Part shown: positions 7,226 through 32,007 of the stretch, piece after piece
Numbering within the stretch: the first letter of the stretch is position 1
Layout of the letters: each line of letters begins with the position of its first letter
Assembly (NCBI GenBank): GCA_000934665.2
Contig: KZ538974.1
Span: 1 to 38,370, forward strand
Origin: Catajapyx aquilonaris
Lineage: Eukaryota
Length of the DNA: 38,370 nt
Reading direction: 5' to 3'
Notes under the pieces: model-generated
The model's database searches: none
Told to the model about the DNA's origin: nothing
The model's input: only the letters and a program-made list of their open reading frames with translations
Translations under genes and position numbers: made by a program

Positions 7226-7755
7226 ATTCAGTGAGGCTGTGGAGTGCCAATGCCACGTGTTGGAGCCGACCAGGTGAATCGGTTGGCGGCCACACGTAAG
7301 TGAATCAAAAGGATCATCATAGCTATCCGAGGCGGCGGCAGAGGTGCCAAAAGGATGCCCGTACCGGCGTCTCCTTCGTCCAGTAGGAGGGAGTGCCTGT
7401 CGTACTCCCTGTCCTCGTACTCCAGCAGCTACCGTCCGGCAAGTCTGGACCGATCGTACACCTCCCGAGCGTACAGCAGCTATGGGAGCCACAAGGATTC
7501 GACAGCCACCGGGTCCAGCAGCAGCTCCAGTTACAGCACCTACCACAGCATGTCCCGACCACCCAGGCCCACTGTGGACAGGGGCAAAGGGGATACTCTG
7601 GGGGAGACTCGTGGGTCAAGGTTCACTAGCAAGTACCTTAGCACCAGCTCGCAAAGTTCTCCATCCAGGACCACGTATTCCTCCCGTATTGGGAGTGACC
7701 TAGCTGAATCCATCCTGAGGAAGGAAGCAACCGCTTCGGCGCTACGAGCCTCCAG
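7226..7755 (+). CDS. USP2: USP2 first coding exon (acceptor before 7226, ATG 7355, Ser/Tyr/Arg-rich [14 protein letters not shown]..., phase-2 donor)
   Basis: Pyrimidine tract ttcttcctccgttgcacccgcag ends at 7225. ORF 7355 runs to CAG|gtaggt at 7755/7756. The 401 coding nt leave AG, which the next exon's G completes. Confidence 0.75.
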
Positions 7756-10700
7756 GTAGGTGTCTGGTGTCTTGTATGGCCTTCGGTTGTGGATGGCCTT
7801 TCTCGGAGATGCTCCGGTTGCCCGGTATCGCTGCCCGGTTTGTGGTGGCCGTAATGTGGGTACGATTGGAGCAGTGCGTCGGACTGGGTGTGAACGCGTT
7901 ATTTTTAAAATTCGTGAATGAGGACTGCAGCTAGTCGATCTCGAGTCTGTATAAATATATATCATATGTAATAAAATTGGGGGCTAATTAGGTTTGATAC
8001 CCGGCAATTGTTAGGAGAAGATGCGGTATAAGGAAATTCAGCGTGTAGTTATTGTTTTATTGCCATTATGTTGCAAAAATTGCTCTCTCAGGCGCTGTCT
8101 CAGGAGGCACAGAGTGTATAAGTTGCAATCTAGCAACACAATATTCAAGTACTCTTGAAATATCGGCAAAACCTACGGCCAGCAGTGTTTTGTGATAGAC
8201 TTTTTCCTGAACCCTCTGGACGCGCTAATTCTGCATAGCATAATGGAAAATTCCATAAAATTATGGCCACCATAAGTCGAGTACAGATATCAGTGTCCTT
8301 AATCGGTCTACTAAAAGATCCAGAAGGAAACCATATGTTTCTGAGAAACTCATCTCGTGACATTCTCAGTCAATTATTATGGGAGCTGACAATGTGCACA
8401 AAGGTGGTACTGATGTGCCACCCGGATCTCTTGGGCAATTAGTTTGTTGCAAAACTGCCATAGGTGTAGGTCGTAGATAGATATCCGGTAAGCAGGAGCC
8501 ATTATAACCAGAGATAGACGACACAAACAACGTGTAGCAATGCTGAGTTGGCGGTATTACGCAAGCAAACAAGCATGCTGAGGTCCTGTATCTCCAGGTC
8601 GCAGTAAAATGTGGACTTCGCAGTTCTCTCCACCATGGCAGGGAGTTCAGAAGCGGGGAGATCTTATTTTAAATTCCTGGGATGCAACGTGTTACACAAT
8701 GGTGTTTTGAGAATGCGCTATATATGCATTGTAAACTTGACAATATTTCTGATGAGTATAGGCGTTCATAGTGCTGCTTGTATAGCCATCCTGCTCACAC
8801 TTGTATGCCGAGAATAATGGAGTTTCATAAGCGAAGCTGTCATATTGGTAGAAAATGTAAATATAAATGTTCTTCACGGTATGACAGGTCGTCGTGTACA
8901 AATGATGTCATGATCCAGTTCACTGTGTACTCACTACTTCATAGTTCATAGTTCTCATAAGCAGAAAGTTGTATGTGCCAGGACTTGAACTAATTATGGC
9001 AGTGAAATGAGCTGCATTGCCTTTGAAAAATCCGACTTAAATATTCTACGATATCGACTCCCAGATTTCCTTTAATTCAATTTTTAAACATGCATTCTGC
9101 ACTTTAATTTTGAGTCAGTTATATACCCATCGAACAGCATTTGCATATATTGGGAGATTTGATACTTCACAGCATTAATTTTTTTTATCAAATTACATAT
9201 GCATCTAGATGTGACTTTGTTTATCCTGATTCGTGTATACATAATATTGTACATTGATTCACAGAATACACAATTTGCTGGAGGCATGTCTTCAACATGC
9301 ACCATTTTTCGATGTTTTTTATTTTAAATGCTGAATTATATGTTCAATACATTTTTCAGTGCAGTGCAGTAGCTATATTGTACAACATGGTCTGGTCCAC
9401 CTTAGCAAGTATCGATATAGGCCTACAACTTTTAATATTTTTATTTTTATTACATAAATCACATTGTTATTCTCGACCTTTCCATACAGTTTATGGCTTG
9501 CTGATTGTACAGAAATCCCACAAGTAATCCTACACAGTACGTGGCGTTTCTCTTGCTTGACCATTCTCAACTTCATGTGCAAGGTAAACAGCAGCTGGAT
9601 TCTTGAACGGATCCAGCAAGTAATACGTATCTGCTGCACAAGGCAGCTGCAAATTATTGTTGTTGCTATTGTTGCCATTAACAACGTAGCCTACACCAGT
9701 ACACCATACATATTATTGTACTGTACATCACCCCAAGGAGTGTAGTAATTTTCATAGGTAGCCCTAAATATCTAACTTTAAGGTAAATAGGACCATCAAA
9801 AAAAGCCTTTGAAACCATTCAGTGGACAACAGTGTAGGCGACCATTGACGTTATACATTATACAGGGTGATCCGAAAGTATGAATAAGTAGGTAATTGTA
9901 TTGTTGGTTGGCAATAATTGCCAACCAACAATACGATACAATTACGATAACTGTGTCCAGATTTGGGAAGCGAAACGCCCGACATTCTCATCCTAAGAAT
10001 GTGTTGTTGCTAGCGCCATATGGTGGGATATTATCGCCACCATTTGAACCGTGCCATGGAATTACCCCACAAAAATGTGAGTATTCATAACTGTGAGCAT
10101 AAAAAGCGAGACATAAAGGTGTGACGTGACCATGAGAATAATGATGTTGGCTACCCTGTATTGTGCGTTGTTGACTGACAACAATTAGGCCACTGAGTGA
10201 ATATCCAGTTTCAAAATGAAACAGTCGTCGATTCTAGGGACTCCAGCCGTCGACGAGATTCCGGCTACGGCAGTTCACTGACCAGCACATATTCAGATCG
10301 CTCGTCTAGCCGCTACTCGACCTCACCTTGGAAGGAGACATCTACCACCGCAAGCACCATGAATGGCACTAGCAGCACCCGTTCCAAGTTGTCCCACGAC
10401 GCAGACGGAGAGAGTTCATCGCCCACAGGCAGCCGCTTCCTCCGTCGTACCAGTGGAACAACCGACACACGCTCGTCCTCCTCGTCGCCATCACGTCTGC
10501 TGGGAGTGAACCGTCGAGGATTGGACAACAGAAGGACCAGCAACGAGGTAACTAGCAACGGCGAACCTCCTAGTCAGCAGAAGAGCGGCGCATCAGCCGC
10601 GGGGTCGCCGTCGCCCGAGCCCAGCGAGGATGCCAACGGAAACCGATTGCCAGTTTCCGAGCTCCGGCGCCTCTTCGACACCAACGCCAACTGCAACGGG

Positions 10701-13700
10701 GCGTCGGGCAGGGCGGCCCCGTCCACTTCTAACCGATCCTCCCCGTCCATGACCCTAGCCAGCCCCGAGCACCGGGGGGAAGAAGCTGCGGACGACGAGG
10801 ATGACGACGACGACGACGAGGCCTCCACAGCCGCGGCGGCCGCTGCTGACGACTCGGCCGCCGAAGAGGCTGAGGAGGATAAGCAGACCAGAAACGGGAC
10901 TAGGTCTTCGTCCTCGTCGTCGTCGTCCTCCTCCTGCTCGTCCTCAGATTCCCCGACACCAACGGCGTCTGGGGCGCGCCGTGATGTGTCATGGACCACT
11001 CCTAACGATTCTCACAGAAGCCGGAGCCGCAGCAGCGGTACCGGCACATCCTCACCTACCCCTTCCAATTCTTCCTTTCCTTCCCAGGCGGGTAGCCCTC
11101 TAACAACCCGACGCACCAGCCGTAACGCCACCACCAACGGCGTCAACACCGACGCCAATGTGAGTAATACCGCTTGCTCTTGTTCCTCTGTCTCTTTTCT
11201 CTCTCTTTAACTGGTACGTCAACACGGGTCGGGTTCATTTGGTTGGCGCCTCTGGCCAACACAACCTCGGATGCCAATGAAATGAACCGCGGACCACTCC
11301 GATTCCTACATGCTTGGCCATACCGACTCTTCGCTGCCTTGGCCTGCCAGGAAATGTATCAATGTCACATTGTTCCCGTTCCGATTGACACACGTTAGAT
11401 GCATGCTTGCAGGGTTGTCGCACCCAGGGTCCATATACGAGGAAACTCCCCAAGCGTCGTCCATGCACCCGATCGGCATGAGACAATTGGGGGTTGCGTG
11501 TAAGAGCACATTGGAAAGCTTTGTCCGCGTACCCCCAAGGAGACTGGGAGGGTACAGCGGCGTCGGAGGGAGTATCCGCCGTCGGCACCAGTTGCGCTAT
11601 TCTTAGCCTCTCCCCATTTAGTTCCCGGCATCTGAAAAAAGCCTTGAGACCGTCCATGGTATTGGGCCGTGGAAGGAAGGGGTCATGTTATTCGGTGTCG
11701 CCTGCTGGTGCTGGATGCTGCACTGTGGCGCATGCCGCCTGAGCACCAAGCACCCGCCGTCGACGGCACTGAATAAACCCGGATGGCTCGAGCTGGCCCA
11801 TTTCCTCTGGCAAATCTGGCTCCTAGTCGCTCTGGCCTTTTGGTCACTCTATCTGCTCTCCATACTGCTGGGGCACCTGGTGCCCAAGGTAAGAAGGGGG
11901 ACCCCCAGCGCCGGGAGTACATTTCGCGAATATGGTTATTTTTAGAGGTGGGGAGGGTGGGGGTGTATGCCAGGGTGTAATGCGGCGGAGAATAAAAAGG
12001 AGGGGGAAAATAAGAGCGTCCGTGGATTATAATTAGAGCTCCGGTTTTTGTATCGCGCGCGGTGCATTTCGGGCGCCATGTTTTTGCAGACTAAATCGAG
12101 GGATGAGGAGATCGGGGTGGAAGCGTGTGCATCAGGTTTCAAGTGGTTATGCCGGCTCGTACACTGTGTGTACTGTTCCGGGGGTTAGCATATCAGCGAT
12201 TTTTCCCACATTTTCAATGGACCGCCAAGAGTTGGTAAAAGGCTAAATTAACTGCGGTTAGCACCTGCATCAGCTGGGTCTTTGGCGATTAGTGTGGTTG
12301 CGGTTGGGGGTTTCCAACGCGACACAAGTACAAGGCCCGTGTGAACCCGGTTTTCGTAGAATCCGAATTATCATCCTATTCCTTCTCCCTTTTTCCTAGA
12401 CGTCCCTCCTAGCATCCCAGCCTCCCCATGCTTCAGAGGCGTCCCAGACTTTCCGGATTTCCCGGATTCCTAGACCTCAAGAGGCTACCCGGACTTCCCG
12501 GATTTCTAGGCCTCCCGACGCTACTCGGACTTCCCATGCTTCAGAGGCTTCCAAGACTGCCCGGAATACCCAGACTTCCCGGATTCCTAGGCCTCCCGAA
12601 GCTACCCGGACTGTCCGGAATCCCATGACTTCCTGGAAAACCCAGGCTTCCCAGATTCCTAGGCCTCCCGAAGCTACCCGGACTGTCCGGAATCCCATGA
12701 CTTCCTGGAAAACCCAGGCTTCCCGGATTCCTAGGCCTCCCGAAGCTACCCGGACTGTCCGGAATACCATGACTTCCTGGAAAACCCAGTCTTCCCGGAT
12801 TCCTAGGCCTCCCGAAGCTACCCGGACTGTCCGGAATCCCATGACTTCCTGGAAAACCCAGGCTTCCCGGATTTCCAGGCATCCCGAAGCTACCGGGACT
12901 GTCCGGAATCCCATGACTTCCTGGAAAACCCAGGCTTCCCGGATTTCTAGGCCTCCCGACGCTACCCGAACTTCCCATGCTTCAGAGGCTTCCCAGGCTT
13001 CCCGGATTCCTAGGCCTCCTGACGCTACCCGGACTCCCCATGCTTCAGAGGCTTCCAACACTGCCCGGAACACCCAGACTTTTCGGGTTCCTAGGGCTCC
13101 TGAGGCTCTCCAGACTTCCCATGCTTCAGAGGCTTCCCAGACTGCCCGGAATATCCAGACGTTCCGGGTTCCTAGGTTTCCCGCGGATATGCAGACTTCT
13201 CACGCTTCAGAGGATTCCCAGACTGCCCGGAATACCCAGACTTTTCGGGTTCCTAGGCCTCCTGAGGCTCTCCAGACTTCCCATGCTTCAGAGGCGACAC
13301 AGGCTGCCCGGAATATCCAGACGTTCCGGGTTCCTAGGTTTCCCGTGGATATCTGGACTTCCCATGCTGCAGAGACTTCCCAGACTGTCCGGAATACCGA
13401 GACTTTTCGGGTTCCTAGGCCTCCTGAGGCTCTCCAGACCTCCCATGCTTCAGAGGCTTCCCAGACTGTCCGGGATACCGAGACTTTTCGGTTTCCTGGG
13501 TCTCCCGATGCTACCTGGACTTCCCACAAGTCCAAGCCATCCCCGACTTTCCTGACCTTCGAGGCATCCCGGACTTCACACATATCCGATGCATCCCGGA
13601 CTTGCCAGACCTCTGAACCAGCCTCGACTTCCAGTATTTCCCAGAAATCCGAGTTTCCCCTGACCGATGATGCTCACCTGAATTTCACAACCGGCCATAA

Positions 13701-16700
13701 GTCCGTACTCTTTGAGAAACTGGTACCTGGCGCAGGCGGTTCAGACAGAACAAGAGGCGCAAACGGCACAATCACCAAACTGAGGACCGAAGTAAGTTGC
13801 AGCTCTTGAATACCATGTAAACAATTACATTGTGTAGCGTGCGTTGTTGATTAGTACGCGGGCGTTGTCTGCAGCTGCACGGTGCGGTGTGTAAATGAGG
13901 TTTAGGGAGGCGTCTCTCAGGTCTGCTGATTGCGGTAAACATGTGAACACAAGTCAGCGCCAATCCATTTCCAGCCCATTTCACCCGCAGCCAGGCATGA
14001 CTGTACTACTGTACAGTCGCGAGCAAAAAGATGCGGACCGGGGTCAACGCGTTCGCTGTATACCGCCGGTGATGTCTCAACGCCAATGTTATTGTCCATT
14101 ACTTATATTCACGGTGAAGAAGAGACATCACCGGTTTTACAGCGAACTCGTTGAAGATCATGATGCTGCTCTGTCCCAGTCTTGTTGCTCGTGATAGTGC
14201 ATGCACTCATTCATACCAATGTAGTCTAATGTGTTTGTTTTAAGGAGTAGATTTGTACTCGCATGAATCTAGGTGAACACGCAATACTGATTCCGATCGT
14301 TCGCCATTATTCATCATTAAATTTTTTAAACATGAGACAAGGTGGAGAGTTCATCAAGGAACACCTGGCGCGGTAGTTGGGCTACTAAATTGTGCATATG
14401 ATTTTACTTGGATCTGACCCACTTATCGCCGAGTCAGTCGGGGGATATCAGGCATTAGGATACGAGTTGATATGGCGGTCAAGGAATGTGCTCGCCGCAT
14501 AGTTTTATAACTGGGTAGGTTTGTTGACAAGGGCAACGATCCGTACTGTTATGTCACTTTTGATAAAAAGCTTGTACGGCGCTTATGTCATCTCCCCAGT
14601 ATCGCGAGTAGTCTTGCGGCATGTCTGCAGGGCCGTATCTGTGAGTGGGTCAGCTTGAGCCAAAGGGCAAGTGAAGACTTGGAGCGCGGTTTAATAATCT
14701 GAGATTTTGCGGTAGTCACCTGGTACACCTGGTTAGTAGTATGGTTCTTGCTTCATGCCCGCAATCGGGTTAATTGCAGCGTCCTCCTCGGAATAATGAA
14801 TCGGACAGGGCCGTGTAGACAACACAACGAAAAAGTGTGCTGACAAGGTGATGCGAGACGAGGTGACCTAGAATGGCTGGTTGGGGGTAAAAAGGAAGGA
14901 GGTCATCGCCTTGTTCCAACCTCGACTGGCCGATATGTAGCATATAGGCAACCTTGGTGTCTGAACAAGGCCAGTTCTTAGGAATCGGCCTTCTTTTTAC
15001 GTGTGTGTCGGAAGAAATGGGAGCGAGGAGAGCCTTGGTAGCCTCCGAAGAGACTTGGCCTAGATGAGTTGGGGGGTCGGTATTTCCGGGCGAAAAAGGT
15101 CAGGATTTTGTGCTGCACGGCGAATACGGTACCGAACGTCGCAAAATTCCGAGGAAGTAGCAATCACACAGTAGCGTGCCGGACAGTATCTTCTCATGAT
15201 CATTTTTTGGGCCGTTTATTGCGTAACGCGGTGGGGTAGAGGTCGTGGGAAAGTCGTCGTAGGCTTCATTTGCAGGGGTTTTTTTCCCTCTCTCTCCTTG
15301 AATATTGCATAGCGTAATTTTTTTCTGTCGGATATGCAGTAATAATGACGTCAGCGTAGGAAAGCTTGTAATCTACCTTGGAATGCATCTTATTTCCTGG
15401 TTCTATTCGGAGTGAACGTGTCTTCAGATAGATTTCCTAGAACGGGGGATGCATTTATGTTTTTTTATTAGTCGTGCTGTAGCAGAGCGCGGAATGCAAA
15501 GTCGATAGCGAATTCACGACCTTGAGGCGACCTTCGTTCCGCCTCCGAAAGGCTCGGTATTTTAACGTGCGCGTAATGTCTGTCGCTTTTTTTTTTTCTT
15601 CTTTTTTCCGGAGGCGACGGTTCATTATTATGCAATAATGTAAGAGCTGACGAGGGGTGTGACCCTTGTTGACCTTTTTTTCGCGTCCATAAATCATTAT
15701 GGGGAGCTTTTGTCGGGGGGGGGGGGGGGTTGGTGTATAATTTAGAGACTCCCATGGTCCTGCAGGATGCCAGACAAATGCTCTTCCAAATTGCATTATG
15801 GCTTTATTATTATGTATACAACCAGGGAAATGGTTGTCAGTCACAGGCGACTAATAAAACGGTGTAAGTGGGAGACGGCTAAATCAATAGTGGCGCTTGA
15901 AATAACACCTGCAGATACTCCGTATTTATGAGATCGTGGTGACGTCATCGTCGGCACTCTATTGCTCCCTAGGTACTTACTGTATATACATGGGTGGTCC
16001 ATAAATGGTATACCGAGGAATAGGGTCGATGTCAAATTATTGCAACAACCATTACTTATCCAGCTGATACTAAATCTGATATCAAATATATTACGCCATA
16101 GGCTCGGATGGGGGGGGGGGNGGGCGTAAAAAAACAAGCCACGTGATTGATCTGAGTGATTCTCGCAGCGATTCCTCCATCCCCAAAATACACAAAAAAA
16201 GAGAGGTTACATAACCTCCAGTCCATATAGTGAATAAATCGCGACCGGAAGGGCCTGCGCCTTATAACAAGTGGATGTAGCAATCTGGGATATGCGGAAT
16301 GGACACATCCTCCTGGTCTGATGATATGCGTGCACTTGTTCGATGCGTCTGCAGATCCATGGGCGGGGGAGGCGGGATGAAGGCCTGGGTAGTGGGGCAT
16401 GGGGGCGGTGGGGTAGGTTTGACGCACGAAGAGATCGCTCTCAAGGCCGGCACAAGCGCCGGCTCTCAGTCAGTGGGCAGGTGAGAACGCGGTAGGATCG
16501 AGCTGTGCGGCACTATATATGTTTTTTTGTATGTAGAGAATAAAATTGGGTGGAAGGATCGATTTTTGGAAAAGGCGCGCAGGCCGGGCAGTGTTGGAAA
16601 TAACTGCGGTGCGAGGCGGCGGCAAGTATGAATCTGAAGCTTAGGTTGCCGCAGAACAGGAGGAAACGAGCGGTTCTGCAGCAGTTGATCATACAGGTAT

Positions 16701-19700
16701 GATGCGGGCCACCTGTTCGGGTGTCGGGACCGGAAACGTGTATCGGAGAGGGGATGCACGGCTGATGACAGTTTTTTTCCAGCTCATGCGCATGGTTACA
16801 TAATACGTTTTTTTTTTGGCACCGTGTGACACTTTTTTGGTTGGCTTGTCGCTCCCGTCTGCTCATCATGTGTGCGTGCAACAAGTGGCTTTTTGGGGTT
16901 AGTGGTAGGATGAAGGTGGCTGATTAACAGCTGATATTGGTGGGGAATACATTGCTGTTACGTCATAAGTGCTCGAAGAATTGTGAAACGGTGTTGTCAG
17001 GGGTTATTTGCAAACAGTTCTGATTTGCGCCTGACCAATAGTATTGTAATTAAAATGGGATTTCAAATTGCGGTTTTGTCTTGGTCATAGCGTGTCAAAT
17101 TTTAATCTATTGTAAGTTGTTAATTGATAAGCAATAAGCAAAAATGAGTGAACCTTGATTTGGTGCAATCCGCTCTAAATCAGATATTTTCAGTTGTTGG
17201 CGAATTAAGAATTTAGTTTAGGACTGGCATTGTTGCTGATAGTTTTACATAAAACACTTGTTGCACTCACATGTTATTTCACTACACTCTTAAGTTGTCA
17301 AAAAAAGGGGGGGGGAGGGGGGGAAACGTGGCCATTTATTGCTTATTTCATCTTGCTGCTTTGGTTTTCTAACAAACAAAAAAAACAATTAAATAACAGT
17401 GACAGTTTGCCACTACGAGTTTTCTAGTGCATGACTAATTAACTTGAGACAGACCAGGACCCGGCCATATCAAAGAGCAAGAGAGAGAGAGAGAAAAAAA
17501 AAAGTGCGATGGCAGTGGTCGTTATCAGGTACATTCCAATTCAAGAGGCATGGTTTAATTAGTTTGTTTTTGTTATGATGGTCGAGATGGAAAATGGCCT
17601 GCGTGATTGTCAAGGTAGGCAGAGTGTAGATTTGCCAGGTGTCATTAGGACACGTTTTGGAGATATGCTATTGGGAAAGTGTTTCATTGTTGTGAAACGG
17701 CAATAACGTAACAAACAATATGATAAATTTCAAAGATGTTCATATGACTGTATGATATATGGAAGCTTCTGTTCCAATGAGATGCCATGATATCAGCCAT
17801 GTTAAAGACATTAATAAATATGTACTGTAAAAGATTAAATTCAGTTGAAAATATATTAGTGTAGTAATTTGTGTCTTGCCGATATGTTGTGCAGGTTATG
17901 TATAAATTCAAGCCCACTTAATGTGATAGTTGACAAGAATAATTCATTTAGTATATAAATACGAACAACAACCAGTTTTCAAAGGTTAACGCCTTTCACC
18001 ATGATTGGGCAGAAATGTAGGTGTCGATTATTTAGTCAGACTGACATGAAAAACGTTGGATTTGGAAGCAATTAAAATGATTTCATGTGAAGTGTGGAGT
18101 TGGTGCATTGTACAGGGTGCGGAAATTTAATCTACCTTCGCTTTGGGGGATGGCAGAGGGCTTCCAGACGATCATTTTAAATATAGAAATGGGTCTCCGA
18201 ATCATAGTTACTGAGATAATTAGCATTAAATAAAAAGTGCATTATCTCAGCTTATAGGTATCGGATACTGCTTACAACACTTCCATCACCTAGGGCATTC
18301 CCTGCTGCACCTAACATGATCGTAAATTAAAATTAAATAACATGGTAACACCTTAAATTTAAATAAAAAAAGGCAAGGTCGCGTGGAGGGACGCATATGT
18401 GCCAGGATATTTTATACCTTGTGCTTTAAGTACATTATCTCGGTAACTATGTGTCAGAGACCCATGTTGCATATTCTCAAAGTGATCGCCTAGAAACCCC
18501 CAATCATATCCCAAAGCGACGGTAGATTAAATTTCAGCACCTTGTATATCTGCAAATGACAGTTCTCAAAGGTCACATTAGGTGGGTCACAGTGTTTTTG
18601 AGATAGCATTCGTTTCCAGGTGACACTGTAATACTGTGGTAATGTTTAGAATAGGCTGCTTGATTTTAATGTGTGCATATTGAAGGTAGTGTTGTTGTCA
18701 AATTTTTCTTTTTTTTACTTGCATTTAAGTGTACTCTGGATGTTCATAAATGGAGTAGACTATATTTTGGGTGCTTTTTTTTACTGAATGTTGTGAATTT
18801 TGACGTTCAGTGTTTTTTTTGCACGCCCTGGAACTGTTACTTCTTGGTTCATTGAATTAAAAATGACATGTGGGCTAAAAAAAGTTGTGACAAAGCAGCA
18901 AGAGAAAGGTTGGAATTTTGTTTGCTGACAGATACATGCACACGCAGCAGCACATTGGTATTTACCTGGATTTTGACACTTTTGCACTGCCAATGGGATC
19001 TCAACTTGGTTTGTGCATCTATGCATATGTACTAATTTTGTTGCTTTTTTATATTTAGGATAGCGATGTGATACCAACATCGCCTCAGATACTGCGGCGC
19101 TATCGCCATGATTCAGCTATCAATGAGCGAGGGGGACTTGTTGGCCTCCGAAACATTGGAAACACAGTGAGTTTGTTAGCGAGCATTTGTTTTTGCCGCA
19201 GGCACTTGTAAAACTCCTCATTTATTGTATCATTTATGTTGCAGTGCTTTATGAATTCAGTAATTCAGTGCCTGAGCAACACCAAACCCCTTCTTGAGTA
19301 TATGCTACGTGACAACTATCTCTCCGATATCAACACCACCGTATCCAGTATGAAGGGCGCACTCATAAAAGGTGAGGAACAGGGATTGTTGTAAATGGTA
19401 AAAATATAATCAAGAAGTGACCAATCAAGTCCCACTTCACTAATATTAATGCATTATGGAAATTCATTGAAGTTGATGGAAATAACTAAGTTGTGGGGTG
19501 TGATAGTTTCAGGCTCTTAAAAGGATGGTGACACCATGCATGCCATGGTTTGTAGGAAAGTGGCTTACTAGATTGATTAGATCCTTTCTCATAGTAATGC
19601 TACCAGTTTTTCCATGTATGCCCATTCCAGCTACTTTTGAGTCAGATGTGTTGGAATAGCCATTGAAGGAGGTTCTCCTTCCCCTTCTATAATGTTGGGA

Positions 19701-22700
19701 ATTTAATTTTTGTACTATAGGTGTACAGTGCCTGCCTCCTCCCCTCTCCTCCCCAACGTTTTCAGCCCCCAAGCCCAAAACTGATCTGAACTCATGGCTC
19801 CCTGCCACCACAACCTTCACTGATATTAGCAACAGTGCCAGGAATTGTCATGATTTGCAGATATGCAACCTAGTTGCACAAGCATTTTTTAGATCACTGT
19901 TCATTTTGTGAAGACAATCATGATCATTATGAATGAGCAGTTCTGAATGTGTTTCTAAAATAGGAGAATTTGGAAGTTAAAGTAAAATGTGCCCTAAATG
20001 CATAACATAAATAGGTTACATAATCAGAGAATTAATTTTGTCATGCATTAATATGAAAAAAATAACTCTCCCTTGAACATTACTGCAAGGTTGTGCAAGT
20101 TTAATAGAGTAGTGCTTAAAAATGAAAACTATGGTGCAATATAGAGTATTCAATCTCAAGTGAGGAAGCATTGAAATCTAGTGTATCATTTGATGGATTC
20201 ATGAGATAATTGCTGGGGAAATTATGAGGAGAACTAGGTATTTGTCTTTTGTCTGCTTTTTGTGGAGGTTCAGATTGAAGTTCACAACATTTCAAGCTTA
20301 CAAGGGAAGGTCACGGGGTGAAAATGACGGATCTTGATGAAATTGATCATGCTAATACAGGACAATATATGATACCCAAAAATGAAATATTTCGTGCGGA
20401 ACCCCATATTTGCAAAAGTTATGACGTCTTAAATTTCCAAAAATAATACATTTTCATACTCCATGGGATTACATTAGCGATCACATATAATGACATTGAA
20501 GTGTGCAATCAGTTTTTAGACCTTTTCTCATCGGAAAAAAGTCATACGGAACGGCTCTGGCCGGCCGTCCGTCCATCCGTCTCTGGACAGGTATCAAGGC
20601 CTAAACCGTAAGAGATAGCGACAAACGGTTTTCATATTCGGATTGAGCGTGACCAAAATAGGTTTCATGGTCAACTTCTGGTGACCCGCCACTTCCGGTC
20701 TTCCGGGTTCACTCTATCCGCACAAGGCTTGTCTACTTTACGGGCGGGTTATCATTGGATTTCAAAGTAGGTTTCCGTGTATTCCTGACCGTGTTTTTCG
20801 GGGATTTACTCCGGGTTTTACCTGACTCTCTGGCACAGGGGCTGTGAAATTTATTCCTGACGTTGGACATGTTTGCAATGAGCGTCATCGGCCGCCATGA
20901 TGTTATCGCCCAAGCAGATACTGGAATCGATATGTTGCCTAGGTTACGATATATCGATTCACATGCTCCCTGAAAGAATGAGAAAAGGTCTAGAAACTGA
21001 TTACACCCTTCAATGTCATTATATGTGGTGGCTAATGTAATCCCATGGAGTATGAAAATGTATTATTTTTGGAACTTTAAGACGTCATAACTTTTGCAAA
21101 TATGGGGTTCCGCACGAAATACTTCATTTTTGGGTATCATATATTGTCCTGTATTAGCATGATCAATTTCATCAAGATCCGTCATTATCACCCCGTGACC
21201 TTCCCTTGTTAGTTTGTGCAAAACTGACTGAAGGCATGCAAGTAGCTTTCTAATGAATGGGAAGAGGTCTTGAGGGAACCTTAAGATGTAACATTTTGTA
21301 CAATTTGTTCATTGTGAAGCAACATTTTTGCTGGAAGGGATTACAATTTCATCTCATTTTTCACAGCATTTGGAGATATGATTCGAGAACTCTGGAATGG
21401 GGAGGAGCGTGGTATGGTGAACACAACCTCTTTTAAGAGTCAAATACAGAGGTTTGCCCCTCGCTTTATGGGCTACAGTCAGCAAGATGCCCAGGAGTTC
21501 CTCCGCTACCTGCTCGAGGGTCTACATGAAGATGTGAATCGTGTAGTTTCCAAGCCACGTCCTCTTGCAGGGGACATAGATGACCGCCTCTCCGACTCAC
21601 AAAAGGCTATTGAAGCCTGGAAGCGGTACCTCCGCTTTGATGACTCCAAAGTGGTGGATATATTTGTTGGGCAGCTTAAGAGTACCCTGCGTTGTACATC
21701 CTGTGGACACTGTTCTGTGACTTTTGATCCCTTTTGGGATCTATCACTGTCTATCCCCAATCGGTCCAGTCAGATTAGATTGGCTCAGTGCTTTGATCTG
21801 TTTGCCAAGGAAGAGGTGCTAGACGGAGATGAAAAACCAGTGAGTATAATACCACCATTATGAAATGCCATTTTGCATACTGTCGAGGATAAAATATATT
21901 GTTAAAGTGCGCTCTATAGTTAAGGTTAATCTAACAATAATACCTTCAGAAAAGGCACATACTCAGGTGCATCATCTCTCCCTTATGCCATATATGATTT
22001 TCTTTTGAAAAAAACTTCTTCACTGACCAGTGTTTAACTGGTGTTTGTTGTGATAAGGATAGAAAGAAACACTTGTCCTTCATATGCATAAAACCATTTT
22101 AATCATTATTATTCATTTCCTTGTATATTGCATCCATGGGAAAATTGCTTACATTGTAAACAGATGACCCCGTATGCAGTTGTTTGAAGGGCTATTGCAG
22201 TTGATTTGCAAGTGTGGCTCACAAACTAATTTTGAATCTTGCAGTGCAATTTGTTTTTATCACATCTGAATGGTAAACCTAGGGCAAGTGGTCAAAGTTG
22301 GCTGGGATGCACTACCTGCTGAAAGGGGCTCATCAAGAGAGGGCGCAGTTGGTGCAGCCACTGGGATCCCACATGGATCCAGACATCCGTTCACTGTCAC
22401 TTCAACGGGCCTGGAAAAGAATTATGTACAGCTAACTCATTCTCTCCCAGCAAGGGTGCCTGAGTCAGGGAGTGGGAAGTGTTGCCAGTTGAAGCCAAAA
22501 TAATGTCTTTCCTGTCACTTAACCCTGGCGAGAGTTACTTGCAAAATGTTCGTCCTCCGGTGATTTTTTGTGTCTTTTTGTGACCATGTCACATTTTTTG
22601 TTAAAAATGGGAAATATAGCAAATTTGTGGGACAGTCTTGGGTTGATTCATTCTGCATTTAGTTCACATTTTTTGAGAAAATAGTACGATCAGAAAAAAA

Positions 22701-25700: not shown

Positions 25701-28700
25701 GGGTGCTTGTTACGACATCACTTAAAATTTTACGACGGCGTAATTTACTCACGAATGCAAATGACTTTTTACAATACTACATTAAGAATATGGGAAAAGT
25801 ACATCACACGTGTAAGAGAGAGGTCAGTTACACTTACACCAAAAAAAAAATCGGTTCTGCTGTTGTTAGTTAGCGAGAACTTTACTCCTAAATTCTCTTT
25901 ATCCCCCCCTTAACCCTGAGTGTTAAGAGACAAGAAAAAAAGAAGGCTGCACGAAAATAACAAAATTCATAATGAACTGTCTACCTAAATACACTCTTGT
26001 TGAATAAGGCATTTGTTATGTTGATGCTTTACCTATTTTGATGTGATTAATAATGGACACAGATCCCATTGAGCTGCCTTGATAGCATTTACCAAAAGTT
26101 TGGATTTTTAGGTCTTTTGTGGGGAGCAAAATATAGCAATTAGGCTGAAGTTATTTCTTTCTTGAGTCTTGATTGAAAATAATTTTTACAAATATTAGAT
26201 AATATTCATAAACACATATTGATAAGGGTTTACTCAATGTGGCATTCTATTTGCTAAAATTGAACTTTTGTGAGAAAAAGACTAATGGCAGTTTCATCCA
26301 ACTGGTTGTACTGCTGGAATAAGTAATCCCTTGATAGTGTGCGTTTCTGAATACAGTAGACTCAGGATATAACAGACTTCAAGGGCCAGGGGAAGTTATA
26401 CCCAAATACACAGGCCATGTATGGAAGCAGCCCCCGGACACTTATACTACATTCTGATGTTATCGCCTGCAGAGGCATTTTGCAGGGGCTGCTCACCTGA
26501 GAGCGCCATGAGACATTTCAGAGCCCAGGTAAGTATAGCGACCCTACCGGATTAGGCTGAACTTTATAGGTACAAATGGGAAGCGCTACATGTGGGCCGA
26601 AAATGGCCGCCGGCGACCATGTTGGGTCCCCCAATGTAGCGCTTCCCTTTTGTACCTATAAAGTTCAGCCTAGTCCGGTAGGGTCGCCACTTACCTGGGC
26701 TCTGAAATGTCTCATGGCACTCTCAGGTGAGCACCTTCTGCAAAACGCCCTGGCAGGGGGTGGGTGTGAGTGACCAGACCTGAGTATTCTTAGATCATGT
26801 ATGGAAGTATGGCAGGACCAGCCTTTCAAGTCTGCTAACTGAGAATCTGTTATAGCTGAAGCTGTTATATCTGGACTCAACTGGATTACCTATTCACTGT
26901 ATCATTATAGAACCATGAAAGGACCCCTTTCATGATTTGAATATGCTCTGTGAATGAGTAATTTTTAGTGGAAGTTGTTCCATACGGTAATAGATGAAAG
27001 AGTGAAACTGAATTTATCAATATCTGTTTTCGGAGTTGTGAAAACTTGTGAAACTTGTGAATTTGCAGTTTCCTCATGTGTGAAAGGGTCACAGAAAGTG
27101 CGGGGAACTTCATAATTTAGGAACAACTTCTACTGAAAATTATCAATAAACAGACAAATTAATTCTTCATGGTATCCTTTACCCTCTTTTTTATGTATCT
27201 ATGCTGATTACTTTTAAATAAGCTTTAGGCCCCTAGTCTGATGACCCCGGGTAAGCTATCCCGCGGGCAATCACCATGGCAACATATGTAAAAGGATAGC
27301 AGTAAACAACCCCAGGGGGCAAGCTACCCGGGGTCACCAGACTATATACCTTAAAATGATTACCAAGTTACTGTGTTTGTATTATCGTGGTTGCATTCCT
27401 TGCTGTTAATTACAGTTGTTTGTTGTATTCCAGACTTGTTCTCAATGCCAGGTGAGACGCAAGTGCACAAAGAGCTTCTCGATTCACAAGTTCCCCAAGA
27501 TTCTCGTACTTCGTATCCTTTTGTGATGTTAAACAGGAATGGCATTTTTCATTTCGAAGGATTTGAGGAAGTTATGGAATTGTGTGCAAAAATAATTGTT
27601 TTATTTCATATGGCAGATTGCCATAATCACAGGTTTTCATAATGTCATTGATATTGTTGCATCTTGTGGCATGGATGTTCATAATAATTGACAAGATGCT
27701 AAAAAGGTATTGGATGGAAGGGCAATGACATGTGGAAGTAATCAAACATTTGGGTTCCAACTTTGGCCTATGTGCTACGTCCTGCGGTGAGTCACTTTAG
27801 GTGTGTAGGATGGAGCGTCTTCTGCACGGTCACAGTAACAAGACCTTATGAGAAGGATATTTTAAAAGCATCACAGAGTTCTCATTCACATTATTTCCAC
27901 CCTGCATAGCACACAAGTTATCCATTACAACTTGCCTCTAGTAGAAGGTAGTGTTTTGGTGGTGCAGGCAGATTATGGAACTTTGTGAACTCTTGGTGTT
28001 CTTTTCCTTAACTTCTCCCACCAGACCTCAAACGCTTTTCCCCAAATGAGCGCTACAGGGGCAAGCTCAACACAACTGTGGACTTCCCCCTAACAGGCCT
28101 TGACCTGAGTCCATATGCAGCCACAAGGAGCCAGGGCTGCATGTACGACTTGTACGGCATGGCAAACCACTCCGGTACTACGTACTCTGGTCATTATACA
28201 GCTTACTGCAAGCACCCCTACTCAAATGAGTGGCATGAATACAATGATGCCAGGTAGGTTCAGCAGATAGAATTGAACAGTTGAACATTCCCAGTAATAG
28301 GGTAAAGATGGTTTCATATGTTGTCACTGCATTACATTTTTTAAATTTATTTATTTTTATTTATTTTTATTTTTAAATACCCTGTGCTAGGGCCGAAAGG
28401 CCCTATCAGGGGGGTGGGAATACTACCATATTTGGAACCATGTGTATAATTTACAATTATTTAGTTGGTCCACGATTAGGATAAGTAGGAGGGGATGTGC
28501 AAAGTGCAAGTGTAATGTCGTAGCTTGGTCATTTTGTGAACTCCCCCGGGTGGATTAGTCGAGCAGAAATTTCCACCCGAGACAAAGCCAGAGATGGCCC
28601 AACTCTGCACGAGATGAAGGGGGGAACCCCGGGTTGGGTTCGAACCCGTGACCTTAACATCCGTGGGCGCGTGCGTTACCGCAGCCTTTGCTGTGATGGA

Positions 28701-31700: not shown

Positions 31701-32007
31701 TTGCACAGACCAATCATGTTAGTAGAGTATTTTTATGGGAGATCTGTTGCTCAGTAATGATGTGCATTTACTATTAACCTGTCAAAACTAATAACAGATA
31801 CCGCAGTTCAGGGTAGTTCGACAAACTCCCATCACTTAGCTACTGATTATTATTGCTACTTCAATGTTGTAGAGTTCCACCAGCACTGACAATATTAATT
31901 TAATTTTTTTTACTTCCAGGGTTAGCAGCCTCTCACCGAGGAATGTGGTTACCAGCGAGGCATACCTCCTTTTTTATGAGCTAGTAGGGCACAGCTCACA
32001 CCTGTGA
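7355..32007 (+). CDS. USP2: Ubiquitin carboxyl-terminal hydrolase 2-like deubiquitinase (peptidase C19), whole spliced CDS, about 808 aa from 8 core exons
   Basis: Joined exons give the Cys box [29 protein letters not shown], the finger-domain CxxC pairs (CTSC, CSQC), ILVLHLKRF, the His box [20 protein letters not shown] and a terminal AYLLFYEL. All introns are GT-AG with matching phases. An uninterrupted catalytic domain behind a long low-complexity N-terminus fits the USP2/USP21 clade. Confidence 0.9.
9863..9970. mobile_element. Degenerate palindromic Tc1/mariner-type MITE; related end fragment at about 6143-6220
   Basis: TACAGGGTGA(T/C)CC(G/A)AAAGTATG at both 6141 and 9861; internal hairpin GTATTGTTGGTTGGCAAT/ATTGCCAACCAACAATAC. 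Confidence 0.6.
10238..11159 (+). CDS. USP2: USP2 coding exon 2, disordered Ser/Thr/Arg-rich region with acidic and poly-Ser tracts
   Basis: Acceptor attctag|G gives the phase required by the previous exon. The sequence is GC-rich and open (track ORF 10197-11210). Donor AAT|gtgagt at 11159/11160 is phase 0. Confidence 0.8.
11622..11888 (+). CDS. Candidate alternative exon (phase 0-0, 89 codons; or first exon from ATG 11685) encoding a transmembrane-like helix
   Basis: Acceptor cctctccccatttag|TTC, open frame FPASEK...[35 protein letters not shown], donor AAG|gtaaga falling on a codon boundary. Confidence 0.5.
12400..13791 (+). CDS. Candidate cassette exon (phase 0-0, 464 codons) largely encoded by a minisatellite
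   Basis: Strong acceptor ccttctccctttttcctag|ACG, in frame with track ORF 12625-13809 and free of stops. Consensus donor GAA|gtaagt at 13791/13792 falls on a codon boundary. Confidence 0.65.
12420..13620. repeat. GC-rich compound minisatellite with 72-bp and 81-bp units built from degenerate 9-bp subunits
   Basis: ATGACTTCCTGGAAAACCCAG recurs at 12625, 12697, 12769, 12841 and 12913 (72-bp period). Downstream units translate as [31 protein letters not shown] 27-mers. Confidence 0.95.
16343..16480 (+). CDS. Candidate alternative first coding exon (46 codons, Arg/Gly-rich) for a short USP2 isoform
   Basis: ATG 16343 opens [14 protein letters not shown]...KRRLSVSGQ, ending at CAG|gtgaga in phase 0 and compatible with exon 19059. 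It lies in a GC/CpG-rich patch with upstream CRE and E-box motifs. Confidence 0.45.
18113..18544. mobile_element. Tc1/mariner-type MITE with long imperfect TIRs
   Basis: TA|CAGGGTGCGGAAATTTAATCTACC...GGTAGATTAAATTTCAGCACCTTG|TA; imperfect complementarity extends about 110 bp. Confidence 0.85.
19059..19166 (+). CDS. USP2: USP2 exon: [10 protein letters not shown]...[12 protein letters not shown] (first half of Cys box)
   Basis: Branch-like tactaat near 19030, acceptor tttag|GAT, donor ACA|gtgagt. Too short to appear in the ORF track. Confidence 0.93.
19245..19371 (+). CDS. USP2: USP2 exon: [13 protein letters not shown]...MKGALIK (catalytic Cys is the first codon)
   Basis: Acceptor ttgcag|TGC after a 78-bp intron; donor G|gtgagg is phase 1. 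Confidence 0.95.
20300..21209. mobile_element. Non-autonomous DNA transposon with near-perfect TIRs of about 230 bp, superfamily unassigned
   Basis: ACAAGGGAAGGTCACGGGGTGA...TCACCCCGTGACCTTCCCTTGT; arms about 20300-20531 and 20978-21209. Confidence 0.92.
21367..21839 (+). CDS. USP2: USP2 exon: (A)FGDMIRELW...[12 protein letters not shown]...CTSC...[10 protein letters not shown]
   Basis: Acceptor tttttcacag|CA; matches track ORF 21378-21863; donor CCA|gtgagt is phase 0. Confidence 0.97.
22523..23664. mobile_element. piggyBac-like non-autonomous element
   Basis: TTAA|CCCT...AGGG|TTAA, with asymmetrically spaced subterminal inverted repeats (TCTTTTTGTGACCA / TGGTCACAAAAAGA). Confidence 0.75.
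22945..23459. mobile_element. PIF/Harbinger-like MITE nested in the piggyBac-like element
   Basis: TTA|AGGCCGGTTGCACCAGTCGCGGTATATGGAA...TTCCATATACCGTGACTGGTGCAACCGGTCC|TTA. Confidence 0.85.
23890..24761. mobile_element. Rearranged mariner-derived element with transposase remnants
   Basis: TA|CAAGGGCAAAT...ATTTGCCCTCG|TA. The minus strand encodes [24 protein letters not shown] (mariner N-terminal HTH-like). The plus strand encodes [32 protein letters not shown] (YSPDLAPSD-like) and [12 protein letters not shown]...YVEI (C-terminus-like). Confidence 0.85.
23975..24136. mobile_element. 162-bp palindromic Tc1-like MITE nested in the left arm of the mariner remnant
   Basis: TA|CAGTGCTGGCCATATATCGA...TCGATATATGGCCAGCACTG|TA with arms of about 65 bp. 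Confidence 0.88.
24855..25392. mobile_element. pogo/Tigger-like MITE
   Basis: TA|CAGTGGGACCCACTTATTTGG...CCAATAAAGTGGGTCGCACTG|TA. Confidence 0.75.
25411..25481 (+). mobile_element. Possible degenerate tRNA-derived SINE head
   Basis: A-box-like TAGCGGTCTGGATTAAGGCG and B-box-like GAGTTCCAACTC at tRNA-like spacing. Confidence 0.25.
26354..26883. mobile_element. pogo/Tigger-like MITE containing a palindrome of about 290 bp (26466-26757)
   Basis: TA|CAGTAGACTCAGGATATAACAG...CTGTTATATCTGGACTCAACTG (right TA not conserved). Internal arms such as GAGACATTTCAGAGCCCAGGTAAGT / ACTTACCTGGGCTCTGAAATGTCTC. Confidence 0.75.
27228..27350. mobile_element. 123-bp Harbinger-like mini-MITE
   Basis: TTA flanks on both sides; TAGTCTGATGACCCCGGGTA / TACCCGGGGTCACCAGACTA inverted repeat. 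Confidence 0.65.
27434..27512 (+). CDS. USP2: USP2 exon: [26 protein letters not shown](H)
   Basis: Acceptor ttgtattccag|ACT; carries the second CxxC; ends at the U12-type donor C|GTATCCTTT in phase 1. Confidence 0.95.
27513..28024 (+). other. U12-type (minor spliceosome) GT-AG intron, 512 bp
   Basis: 5' site GTATCCTTTT; branch sequence TTTTCCTTAAC at 28002-28012, 12 nt before the intron end; splicing restores the conserved LVLH-LKRF motif. Confidence 0.92.
28025..28253 (+). CDS. USP2: USP2 exon: (H)[14 protein letters not shown]...[29 protein letters not shown](R), His box
   Basis: Open frame with the catalytic His and the ND motif; donor AG|gtaggt is phase 2. Confidence 0.97.
28346..28685 (-). 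mobile_element. Second tRNA-like SINE head plus LINE-like 3' tail (stem-loop and (TAAA)n)
   Basis: Minus strand has the B box GGTTCGAACCC near 28636-28646, hairpin TAGGGCC-4nt-GGCCCTA at 28388-28405, then an A-rich TAAA tail at 28346-28374. Confidence 0.5.
28700..28869 (-). mobile_element. tRNA-derived SINE with a V-domain-like core
   Basis: Minus strand starts GGGCGGCACGGTGGCGAAGTAGTTAG (A box), then GTTTCGATCCCC (B-box-like), then GTTCTCTCCGTGTTTGCGTGGGTTTTCTCGGGGTTCTCCCGTTTCCTCCCAC, which resembles the V-SINE central domain as I recall it. Confidence 0.75.
28990..29141. mobile_element. Short degenerate Tc1/mariner-type MITE
   Basis: TA|CAGGGTGTGCC...GGGACACCCTG. Confidence 0.5.
29480..30268. 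mobile_element. pogo/Tigger-like MITE, copy 1 of a family present twice
   Basis: TA|CCATATTACCTCAC...GTGAGGTAATACGG|TA; shares both ends and internal sequence with 36157-36705. Confidence 0.85.
30366..31195. mobile_element. MITE with TIRs of about 200 bp and 7-bp TSD GTTCAAT (P-element-like)
   Basis: GTTCAAT|CAGGGCCACCTAGAGACAAGGCC...GGCCTTGTCTCTAGGTGGCCCTG|GTTCAAT. Confidence 0.88.
31920..32007 (+). CDS. USP2: USP2 last coding exon: [28 protein letters not shown]
   Basis: Acceptor ttttttacttccag|G; terminal AYLLFY motif; TGA at 32005-32007. Confidence 0.95.

Follow-up and report, generated by a model that had tools for sequence, protein, structure and literature searches.

The USP2 locus of Catajapyx aquilonaris

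We analysed a stretch of 38,370 nucleotides (nt) from Catajapyx aquilonaris (positions 1 to 38,370 of contig KZ538974.1, assembly GCA_000934665.2; the window in what follows), whose plus strand, judging from homology, carries an arthropod USP2 gene (peptidase C19). An initial annotation, made from the letters alone, had flagged a stop-free stretch between two exons of this gene as a candidate exon adding a transmembrane helix to USP2, either as a cassette or by starting at an ATG within it. The second of these proposals is the one we favour: positions 11685-11888 are probably an alternative first coding exon of USP2 that encodes a membrane anchor. The features on which the argument draws are the following.

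7355..7755, plus strand: USP2 long-form exon 1, with its ATG at 7355, an MPVP start as in other arthropod USP2 proteins and its donor at 7755
10238..11159, plus strand: USP2 long-form exon 2, encoding a Ser-rich linker, with a phase-0 donor at 11159; an inner donor at 10547 is used too
11622..11888, plus strand: flagged frame, 89 codons from the AG at 11620-21 to AAG/gtaaga
11685..11888, plus strand: proposed alternative first coding exon, 68 codons from the ATG to the phase-0 donor
11802..11873, plus strand: predicted transmembrane helix (24 residues, FLWQIW...SILLG), 19-residue Kyte-Doolittle peak 2.38
11889..11894, plus strand: donor gtaaga of the proposed exon, eight of nine matches to the consensus
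19059..19166, plus strand: first common exon of USP2, with a phase-0 acceptor, starting DSDVIPTS and ending with the start of the Cys box (11 residues)
19245..19371, plus strand: common catalytic exon (CFMNSV...)
21367..21839, plus strand: common catalytic exon, Pfam UCH match 3.5e-22
27434..27512, plus strand: common catalytic exon
28025..28253, plus strand: common catalytic exon, Pfam UCH match 7.5e-20
31920..32007, plus strand: last USP2 coding exon, holding the stop codon

The initial annotation had already named the gene as USP2, and the homology comparisons support this identification. Two of the downstream frames match the Pfam UCH family (PF00443; 3.5e-22 and 7.5e-20), the top database relatives of the catalytic exon at 21.3 kb are insect and crustacean USP2 proteins (identity at most 76%), and eight arthropod USP2 proteins, aligned to the window by tblastn, mark the catalytic exons near 19.06, 21.35, 27.43, 28.0 and 31.9 kb, with five aligned blocks for most of the eight queries. 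Spliced in silico, the exons of the long form give an intact protein of 808 residues, in which 25 residues separate the start of the exon at 19059 (DSD) from the Cys box. The window has one assembly gap (110 N at 1216-1325, between C-rich and G-rich runs) and five single N elsewhere, at 564, 3845, 5230, 16121 and 37813.

Transcripts were available as the contigs of one usable run (X1, kind unrecorded), which contains 0.44 of the sampled words. One X1 contig joins 7755 to 10238 over a GT..AG intron, so these contigs are spliced and derive from RNA. Two others, ending at 11160 and 10548, share the next 29 letters, which are unique in the window and lie at 19060-19088; exon 2 is thus joined directly to 19059 in X1, from the alternative donors 11159 and 10547, with products of 808 and 604 residues. 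Use of the inner donor drops 204 codons of the Ser/Asp/Glu-rich linker, and the two forms have comparable contig depths (14.4 and 9.8). An unspliced X1 contig of 247 nt (plus strand, depth 2.2), lying at 9350-9595 in an AT-rich part of intron 1, could be pre-mRNA, a repeat or a further exon.

Sequence features of the proposed exon

The flagged stretch lies on the coding strand inside the 7.9-kb intron 2, between donor 11159 and acceptor 19059, and its 267 nt form 89 stop-free codons. Its boundaries were re-read exactly as first described: the acceptor (AG at 11620-21) is pyrimidine-rich, with 14 pyrimidines in the 17 positions from -20 to -4, and the donor at 11888/11889 (AAG/GTAAGA) matches MAG/GTRAGT at eight of nine positions, on a scale where the real donors of the USP2 gene score 7-8 (the mis-set row at 19372, which scored 4, being excluded). 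The encoded peptide likewise contains what had been reported for it, a Cys/Trp-rich stretch of 12 residues followed by a segment of 24 uncharged, mostly hydrophobic residues. The hydrophobic segment has a 19-residue Kyte-Doolittle peak of 2.38, well above the customary threshold of 1.6.

When translation is started at the in-frame ATG at 11685, the exon encodes two hydrophobic segments: the Cys/Trp-rich stretch stands at the N-terminus, and the main helix follows towards the end. The helix is preceded by 43 residues and separated from the Cys box by 29 residues, and its flanks carry charges of 0 on the N side and +1 on the C side. As donor 11159 and acceptor 19059 are both in phase 0, the frame is kept whether the flagged stretch is included as a cassette (897 residues) or translation starts at ATG 11685 (435 residues), and splicing the latter exon to 19059 and onward in silico gives the 435-residue protein without an internal stop.

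The composition of the stretch was compared with that of the rest of the gene. The flagged frame has a third-position GC of 0.72, while the other two frames have 0.60 and 0.46 and exons 1 and 2 have 0.68-0.70, which lends weak support to a coding first exon. A codon-usage log-odds score trained on 826 codons of the USP2 gene gave -0.2 per codon for the flagged frame and -0.18 to 0.24 for the true catalytic exons, and given this overlap codon usage cannot discriminate. The observed/expected ratio of CpG has no peak specific to 11.2-11.7 kb, which says nothing on an internal promoter. Along the window this ratio is about 0.7-1.2 between 1 and 17 kb; beyond 17 kb most values are 0.05-0.6, with a few 500-nt bins near 1; such a drop in the 3' half would be expected if methylation were confined to the catalytic-exon part of the gene body.

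Anchor-bearing short USP2 forms in other arthropods

Related architectures occur in the N-termini of other arthropod USP2 proteins. A first scan, for hydrophobic segments that lie upstream of the Cys box and peak above 2.0, returned eight of 116 fetched USP2 proteins. A second search, with a profile of six such N-termini, raised the set to 163 arthropod USP2 proteins, 10 of which have a 19-residue helix peak of at least 1.9 upstream of the Cys box, a proportion that is not an estimate of prevalence as the set was partly fetched by a helix-containing profile. Taking as short those forms whose Cys box lies within the first 200 residues (n = 28), we found an N-terminal helix in eight, with peaks of 2.4-2.9, while the remaining 20 reach at most 1.28.

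The carriers of a helix are two weevils (P0067 and P0068), a longhorn beetle, a louse (P0028), a planthopper (P0095, RefSeq isoform X2), a mayfly (P0008), an ant, a crayfish, which is doubtful for its repetitive N-terminus, and two proteins from run assemblies (P0010 and P0138). The latter two are unbroken frames of 427 and 418 residues on contigs of 3230 and 1470 nt, and because frames of this length are unbroken on such short contigs we take them to come from spliced mRNA. In the homologues informed by RNA (the RefSeq isoform and the two run-derived proteins) the helix stands at the N-terminus. It is internal in the ant and longhorn-beetle models, both of which are ab initio; in the beetle, a Met placed 22 residues before the conserved Trp of the helix, and about 13 before the start of the hydrophobic stretch, suggests a merged model.

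The point at which the anchor-bearing forms join the common part of the protein could be read in three cases. For both weevils the sequences of the anchor-bearing form and the long form coincide from a string starting DVS onward, 59-61 residues before the Cys box, and in a termite-like pair the common part starts at DTS, 27 residues before it (the exact-match walk for this pair stops 22 residues out at a single substitution, and the DTS start was read from the printed strings). Set beside the DSD start of the exon at 19059, these join points show that other arthropods splice their anchor exon to the counterpart of 19059. Donor 11888 would make the corresponding join, to 19059, in the right phase. 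The predicted length of 435 residues lies within the range of 418-466 seen in six of the eight short forms with an N-terminal helix, the other two being those of the mayfly (543) and the crayfish (519).

The fly short forms and the single moth short form that were sampled have no N-terminal helix (P0145, P0144, P0137, P0142, P0135, P0130 and P0126); the hydrophobicity peaks of P0145, P0137 and P0126 are at most 0.28, and the other four are missing from the list of peaks of at least 1.8. Diptera and Lepidoptera may have lost the anchor exon, or it may be unannotated in them; either could explain the lack of studies on it.

The combination of features is rare, and it lies where an anchor exon is expected

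A chance pseudo-exon would account for the flagged stretch as a pyrimidine- and GC-rich part of intron 2 that happens to be stop-free, rich in Leu, Phe and Trp and followed by a consensus-like GT, and that is never used. Taken individually, the features are indeed ordinary. Outside the exons the window holds 62 stop-free stretches of at least 89 codons, a hydrophobicity peak of at least 2.0 occurs in six of the 125 such stretches of at least 70 codons, and the 1.2 kb around the flagged stretch is open in many frames on both strands. Intron 2 has 231 in-phase AG..GT stop-free segments of at least 150 nt, many of them from a minisatellite, against about 60 in shuffled sequence. The codon-usage score of the flagged frame is unremarkable (rank 47 of 124), and the X1 contigs that run from exon 2 straight to 19059 are also what a pseudo-exon would give.

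The minisatellite itself occupies 12453-13526 (the frame is open over 12400-13809), 0.5 kb downstream of the flagged stretch; its periods (72, 81 and 162) can all be divided by 9. Several of its frames are open on each strand, among them one of 469 codons on the plus strand, and it inflates the counts of open frames in the intron.

It is the combination that is uncommon. An ATG, a helix peak of at least 2.0 within 200 codons of it and an in-frame GT with at least seven of nine consensus matches occur together once over both strands of the window (76.7 kb), at donor 11888. In block-shuffled versions of the intron (300 for each set of thresholds) the combination appeared in 2.3%, 1% and 0% as the thresholds were tightened, figures that are indicative only, as we had already seen the homologues and the candidate when we fixed the thresholds. 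Within the 19 kb upstream of 19059 the flagged exon is the only good candidate for an anchor exon, and 11622-11888 is the only AG..GT unit of intron 2 with both splice sites that good, again by thresholds chosen post hoc.

Chance is hard to credit here because independent evidence, namely the anchor forms of other arthropods, predicts an anchor-encoding first exon in the very gene, intron and phase that this rare unit occupies. That position did not guide the initial annotation, which held USP2 to be soluble, in agreement with the passages available from two reviews (PMC7865608, PMC5723915), so that the candidate was not selected for an anchor precedent. We therefore regard a pseudo-exon as an unlikely, though still serious, explanation of the flagged stretch.

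Evidence weighing against an anchor exon

Besides the post hoc thresholds just mentioned, several results count against a functional first exon at 11685-11888, one of them being the absence of recognisable homology, which a pseudo-exon would explain. A phmmer search with the 89 residues against 1.84 billion representative sequences returned no match at E ≤ 0.001. The only Pfam match to the flagged peptide, to a helix-hairpin-helix family, was sub-threshold (E 0.037; 14.3 bits, with the cut-off at 24) and was dismissed. When the helices of the other arthropods are aligned on their common Trp they have two Leu at +3/+4 and often Tyr-Gly/Ser-Phe, which is a loose pattern. A profile of nine such helices, run against 1033 six-frame open reading frames (ORFs) of the window, ranked the flagged frame fifth with composition correction off (E 0.36) and outside the top 12 with it. 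The top match of that profile was a hydrophobic intronic frame at 17209-17424 (plus strand; E 0.17, or 0.014 without composition correction), which we judged to be noise: it is without an ATG, only 13 residues align and no good splice sites were found for it.

A position-specific permutation test likewise fell short, with p of about 0.10 when the whole peptide was shuffled and 0.013-0.024 when the core was shuffled. The same test in leave-out trials gave p < 0.001 for five of the nine true anchor members and 0.026-0.27 for the other four (whole-peptide shuffle). The flagged peptide scores about as the weakest true members do, which is not convincing. A word-indexed search with residues 1-60 of P0010, one of the run-assembly anchor forms, returned only P0010 itself. 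Sequence relatedness between the proposed exon and the other anchor exons is, on these comparisons, neither shown nor excluded.

Three further points are to be set on the same side. No transcript of the flagged exon was seen, the sole usable run showing the joins of the long forms (11159 and 10547 to 19059); these contigs, being those of the long forms, neither show nor exclude a second start site, and contigs drop rare variants. X1 has no cover over 11316-12390, which we count neither for nor against. An out-of-frame ATG lies at 11656 and would disturb translation from 11685, but only if the transcript starts upstream of it. Finally, the helix of the window comes later and lies nearer to the Cys box (43 residues before it and 29 after) than in most homologues, where 0-36 residues precede and 56-162 follow; the doubtful crayfish form has 69 and 38.

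First exon, cassette or nested gene

The initial annotation had left two ways of making a membrane-tethered isoform, and they fare differently. If a minority of the long transcripts included 11622-11888 between 11159 and 19059, 89 residues with two hydrophobic segments would be inserted, giving the 897-residue form. Such a cassette would leave the frame intact, being in phase 0 on both sides; its acceptor is pyrimidine-rich and belongs to the one unit of the intron in which both sites are good by our post hoc thresholds, and the ant and longhorn-beetle models do have an internal helix. However, the X1 contigs from both exon-2 donors skip to the first 29 bases after 19059, so the flagged stretch is not a constitutive cassette, even if rare inclusion would still be compatible with them. 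A second AG 14 nt upstream of the acceptor (11605-06) would compete with it, and its use adds an in-frame TAG (11619-21). The RNA-informed homologues, moreover, have the helix at the N-terminus, and the position of the Met in the beetle model points to a merger. A cassette exon is on these grounds quite improbable, whereas a start at ATG 11685 has behind it the short forms of other arthropods, with their N-terminal helix and with the same join, phase and size.

A small nested gene unrelated to USP2, running from ATG 11685 through the donor to a stop at 11943-45 and encoding an 87-residue membrane peptide, is more improbable still. The frame does continue to 11945, but there is no homologue, Pfam returned no family above its threshold, and nothing positive speaks for such a gene.

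The mechanism that we propose for the first exon is as follows. Transcription would begin at an internal start site within the large intron ahead of the catalytic exons, and donor 11888 would be spliced in phase 0 to acceptor 19059. The product would be a short isoform of 435 residues, in which about 43 residues precede a single transmembrane helix and a short linker leads from there to the whole of the USP catalytic core. Its helix would act as an uncleaved signal-anchor, tethering the catalytic domain at the cytosolic face of a membrane. In such a scheme promoter choice, and not cassette splicing, would decide between the soluble proteins of 808 and 604 residues (the long forms) and the tethered short one.

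It is an evenly balanced possibility that insects, and perhaps pancrustaceans, have kept an ancestral membrane-anchored short USP2, for which an internal promoter would be used and whose first exon would evolve fast, with only a Trp/Leu-rich signal-anchor helix conserved. The window would then contain a new and very divergent copy of this exon, and the isoform would be the arthropod counterpart of the membrane-associated mammalian USP2-45 and would bring USP2 activity to a membrane.

USP2 has been studied as a soluble or peripherally associated enzyme whose isoforms differ only in their N-termini. If arthropods encode a form that is inserted into the membrane and selected by promoter use, membrane substrates of USP2, such as receptors, channels and immune adaptors (Imd in flies, for example), could be under the control of an isoform that has not been assayed, and knock-downs of 'all isoforms' would mix two enzymes with different locations. 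For annotation, the lesson would be that a fast-evolving anchor exon can escape homology search and still be found by architecture, position and phase.

Comparison with known systems

The closest parallels to the predicted protein are the anchor forms of the planthopper, the weevils, the louse, the mayfly and the two run assemblies. In these an N-terminal helix of 19-29 residues, which contains Trp and is rich in Leu, is followed by a linker and the full USP core, and the common part is joined about 25-60 residues before the Cys box. The peptide of the window has no significant sequence similarity to them. Its flank charges run in the same direction as in most of these homologues, which would place the catalytic domain in the cytosol. 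The additional hydrophobic segment at its N-terminus, rich in Cys and Trp, has a comparable first segment in the louse form only, and the louse form and the proposed exon also agree in layout, the helix being separated from a hydrophobic N-terminus by a polar spacer.

The mammalian USP2-45 (USP2b) follows the same gene logic, in that its N-terminus is swapped via an alternative first exon while the catalytic core is identical. The isoforms of USP2 have identical catalytic cores and differ in N-terminal extensions that are held to set their localisation and partners, according to the parts of a review available here, which also describe a C-terminal peroxisomal signal (PMC7865608). [quoted passage not shown] They describe no transmembrane helix in USP2-45 and ascribe its membrane association to partners, in which it differs from the form predicted here. 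The passages of two USP2 reviews likewise make no mention of a transmembrane isoform (PMC7865608, PMC5723915). A literature search in full text found no paper on a transmembrane form of USP2 in arthropods, and the class of anchored isoforms, although present in database models and assembled transcripts, appears to be undiscussed in print.

Membrane-anchored members are known elsewhere among the USPs. In USP30 and USP19 a single helix, N-terminal in the former and C-terminal in the latter, keeps the USP domain at the cytosolic face of an organelle membrane. These two enzymes belong to other USP subfamilies, and their anchors are constitutive and not specific to an isoform. Nearly all of the named entries among the top 120 matches of the catalytic exon are USP2 or USP2-like/USP21-like arthropod proteins or else unnamed models, and none is named USP19 or USP30. 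The likeness of the predicted protein to USP30 and USP19 would be a functional one only.

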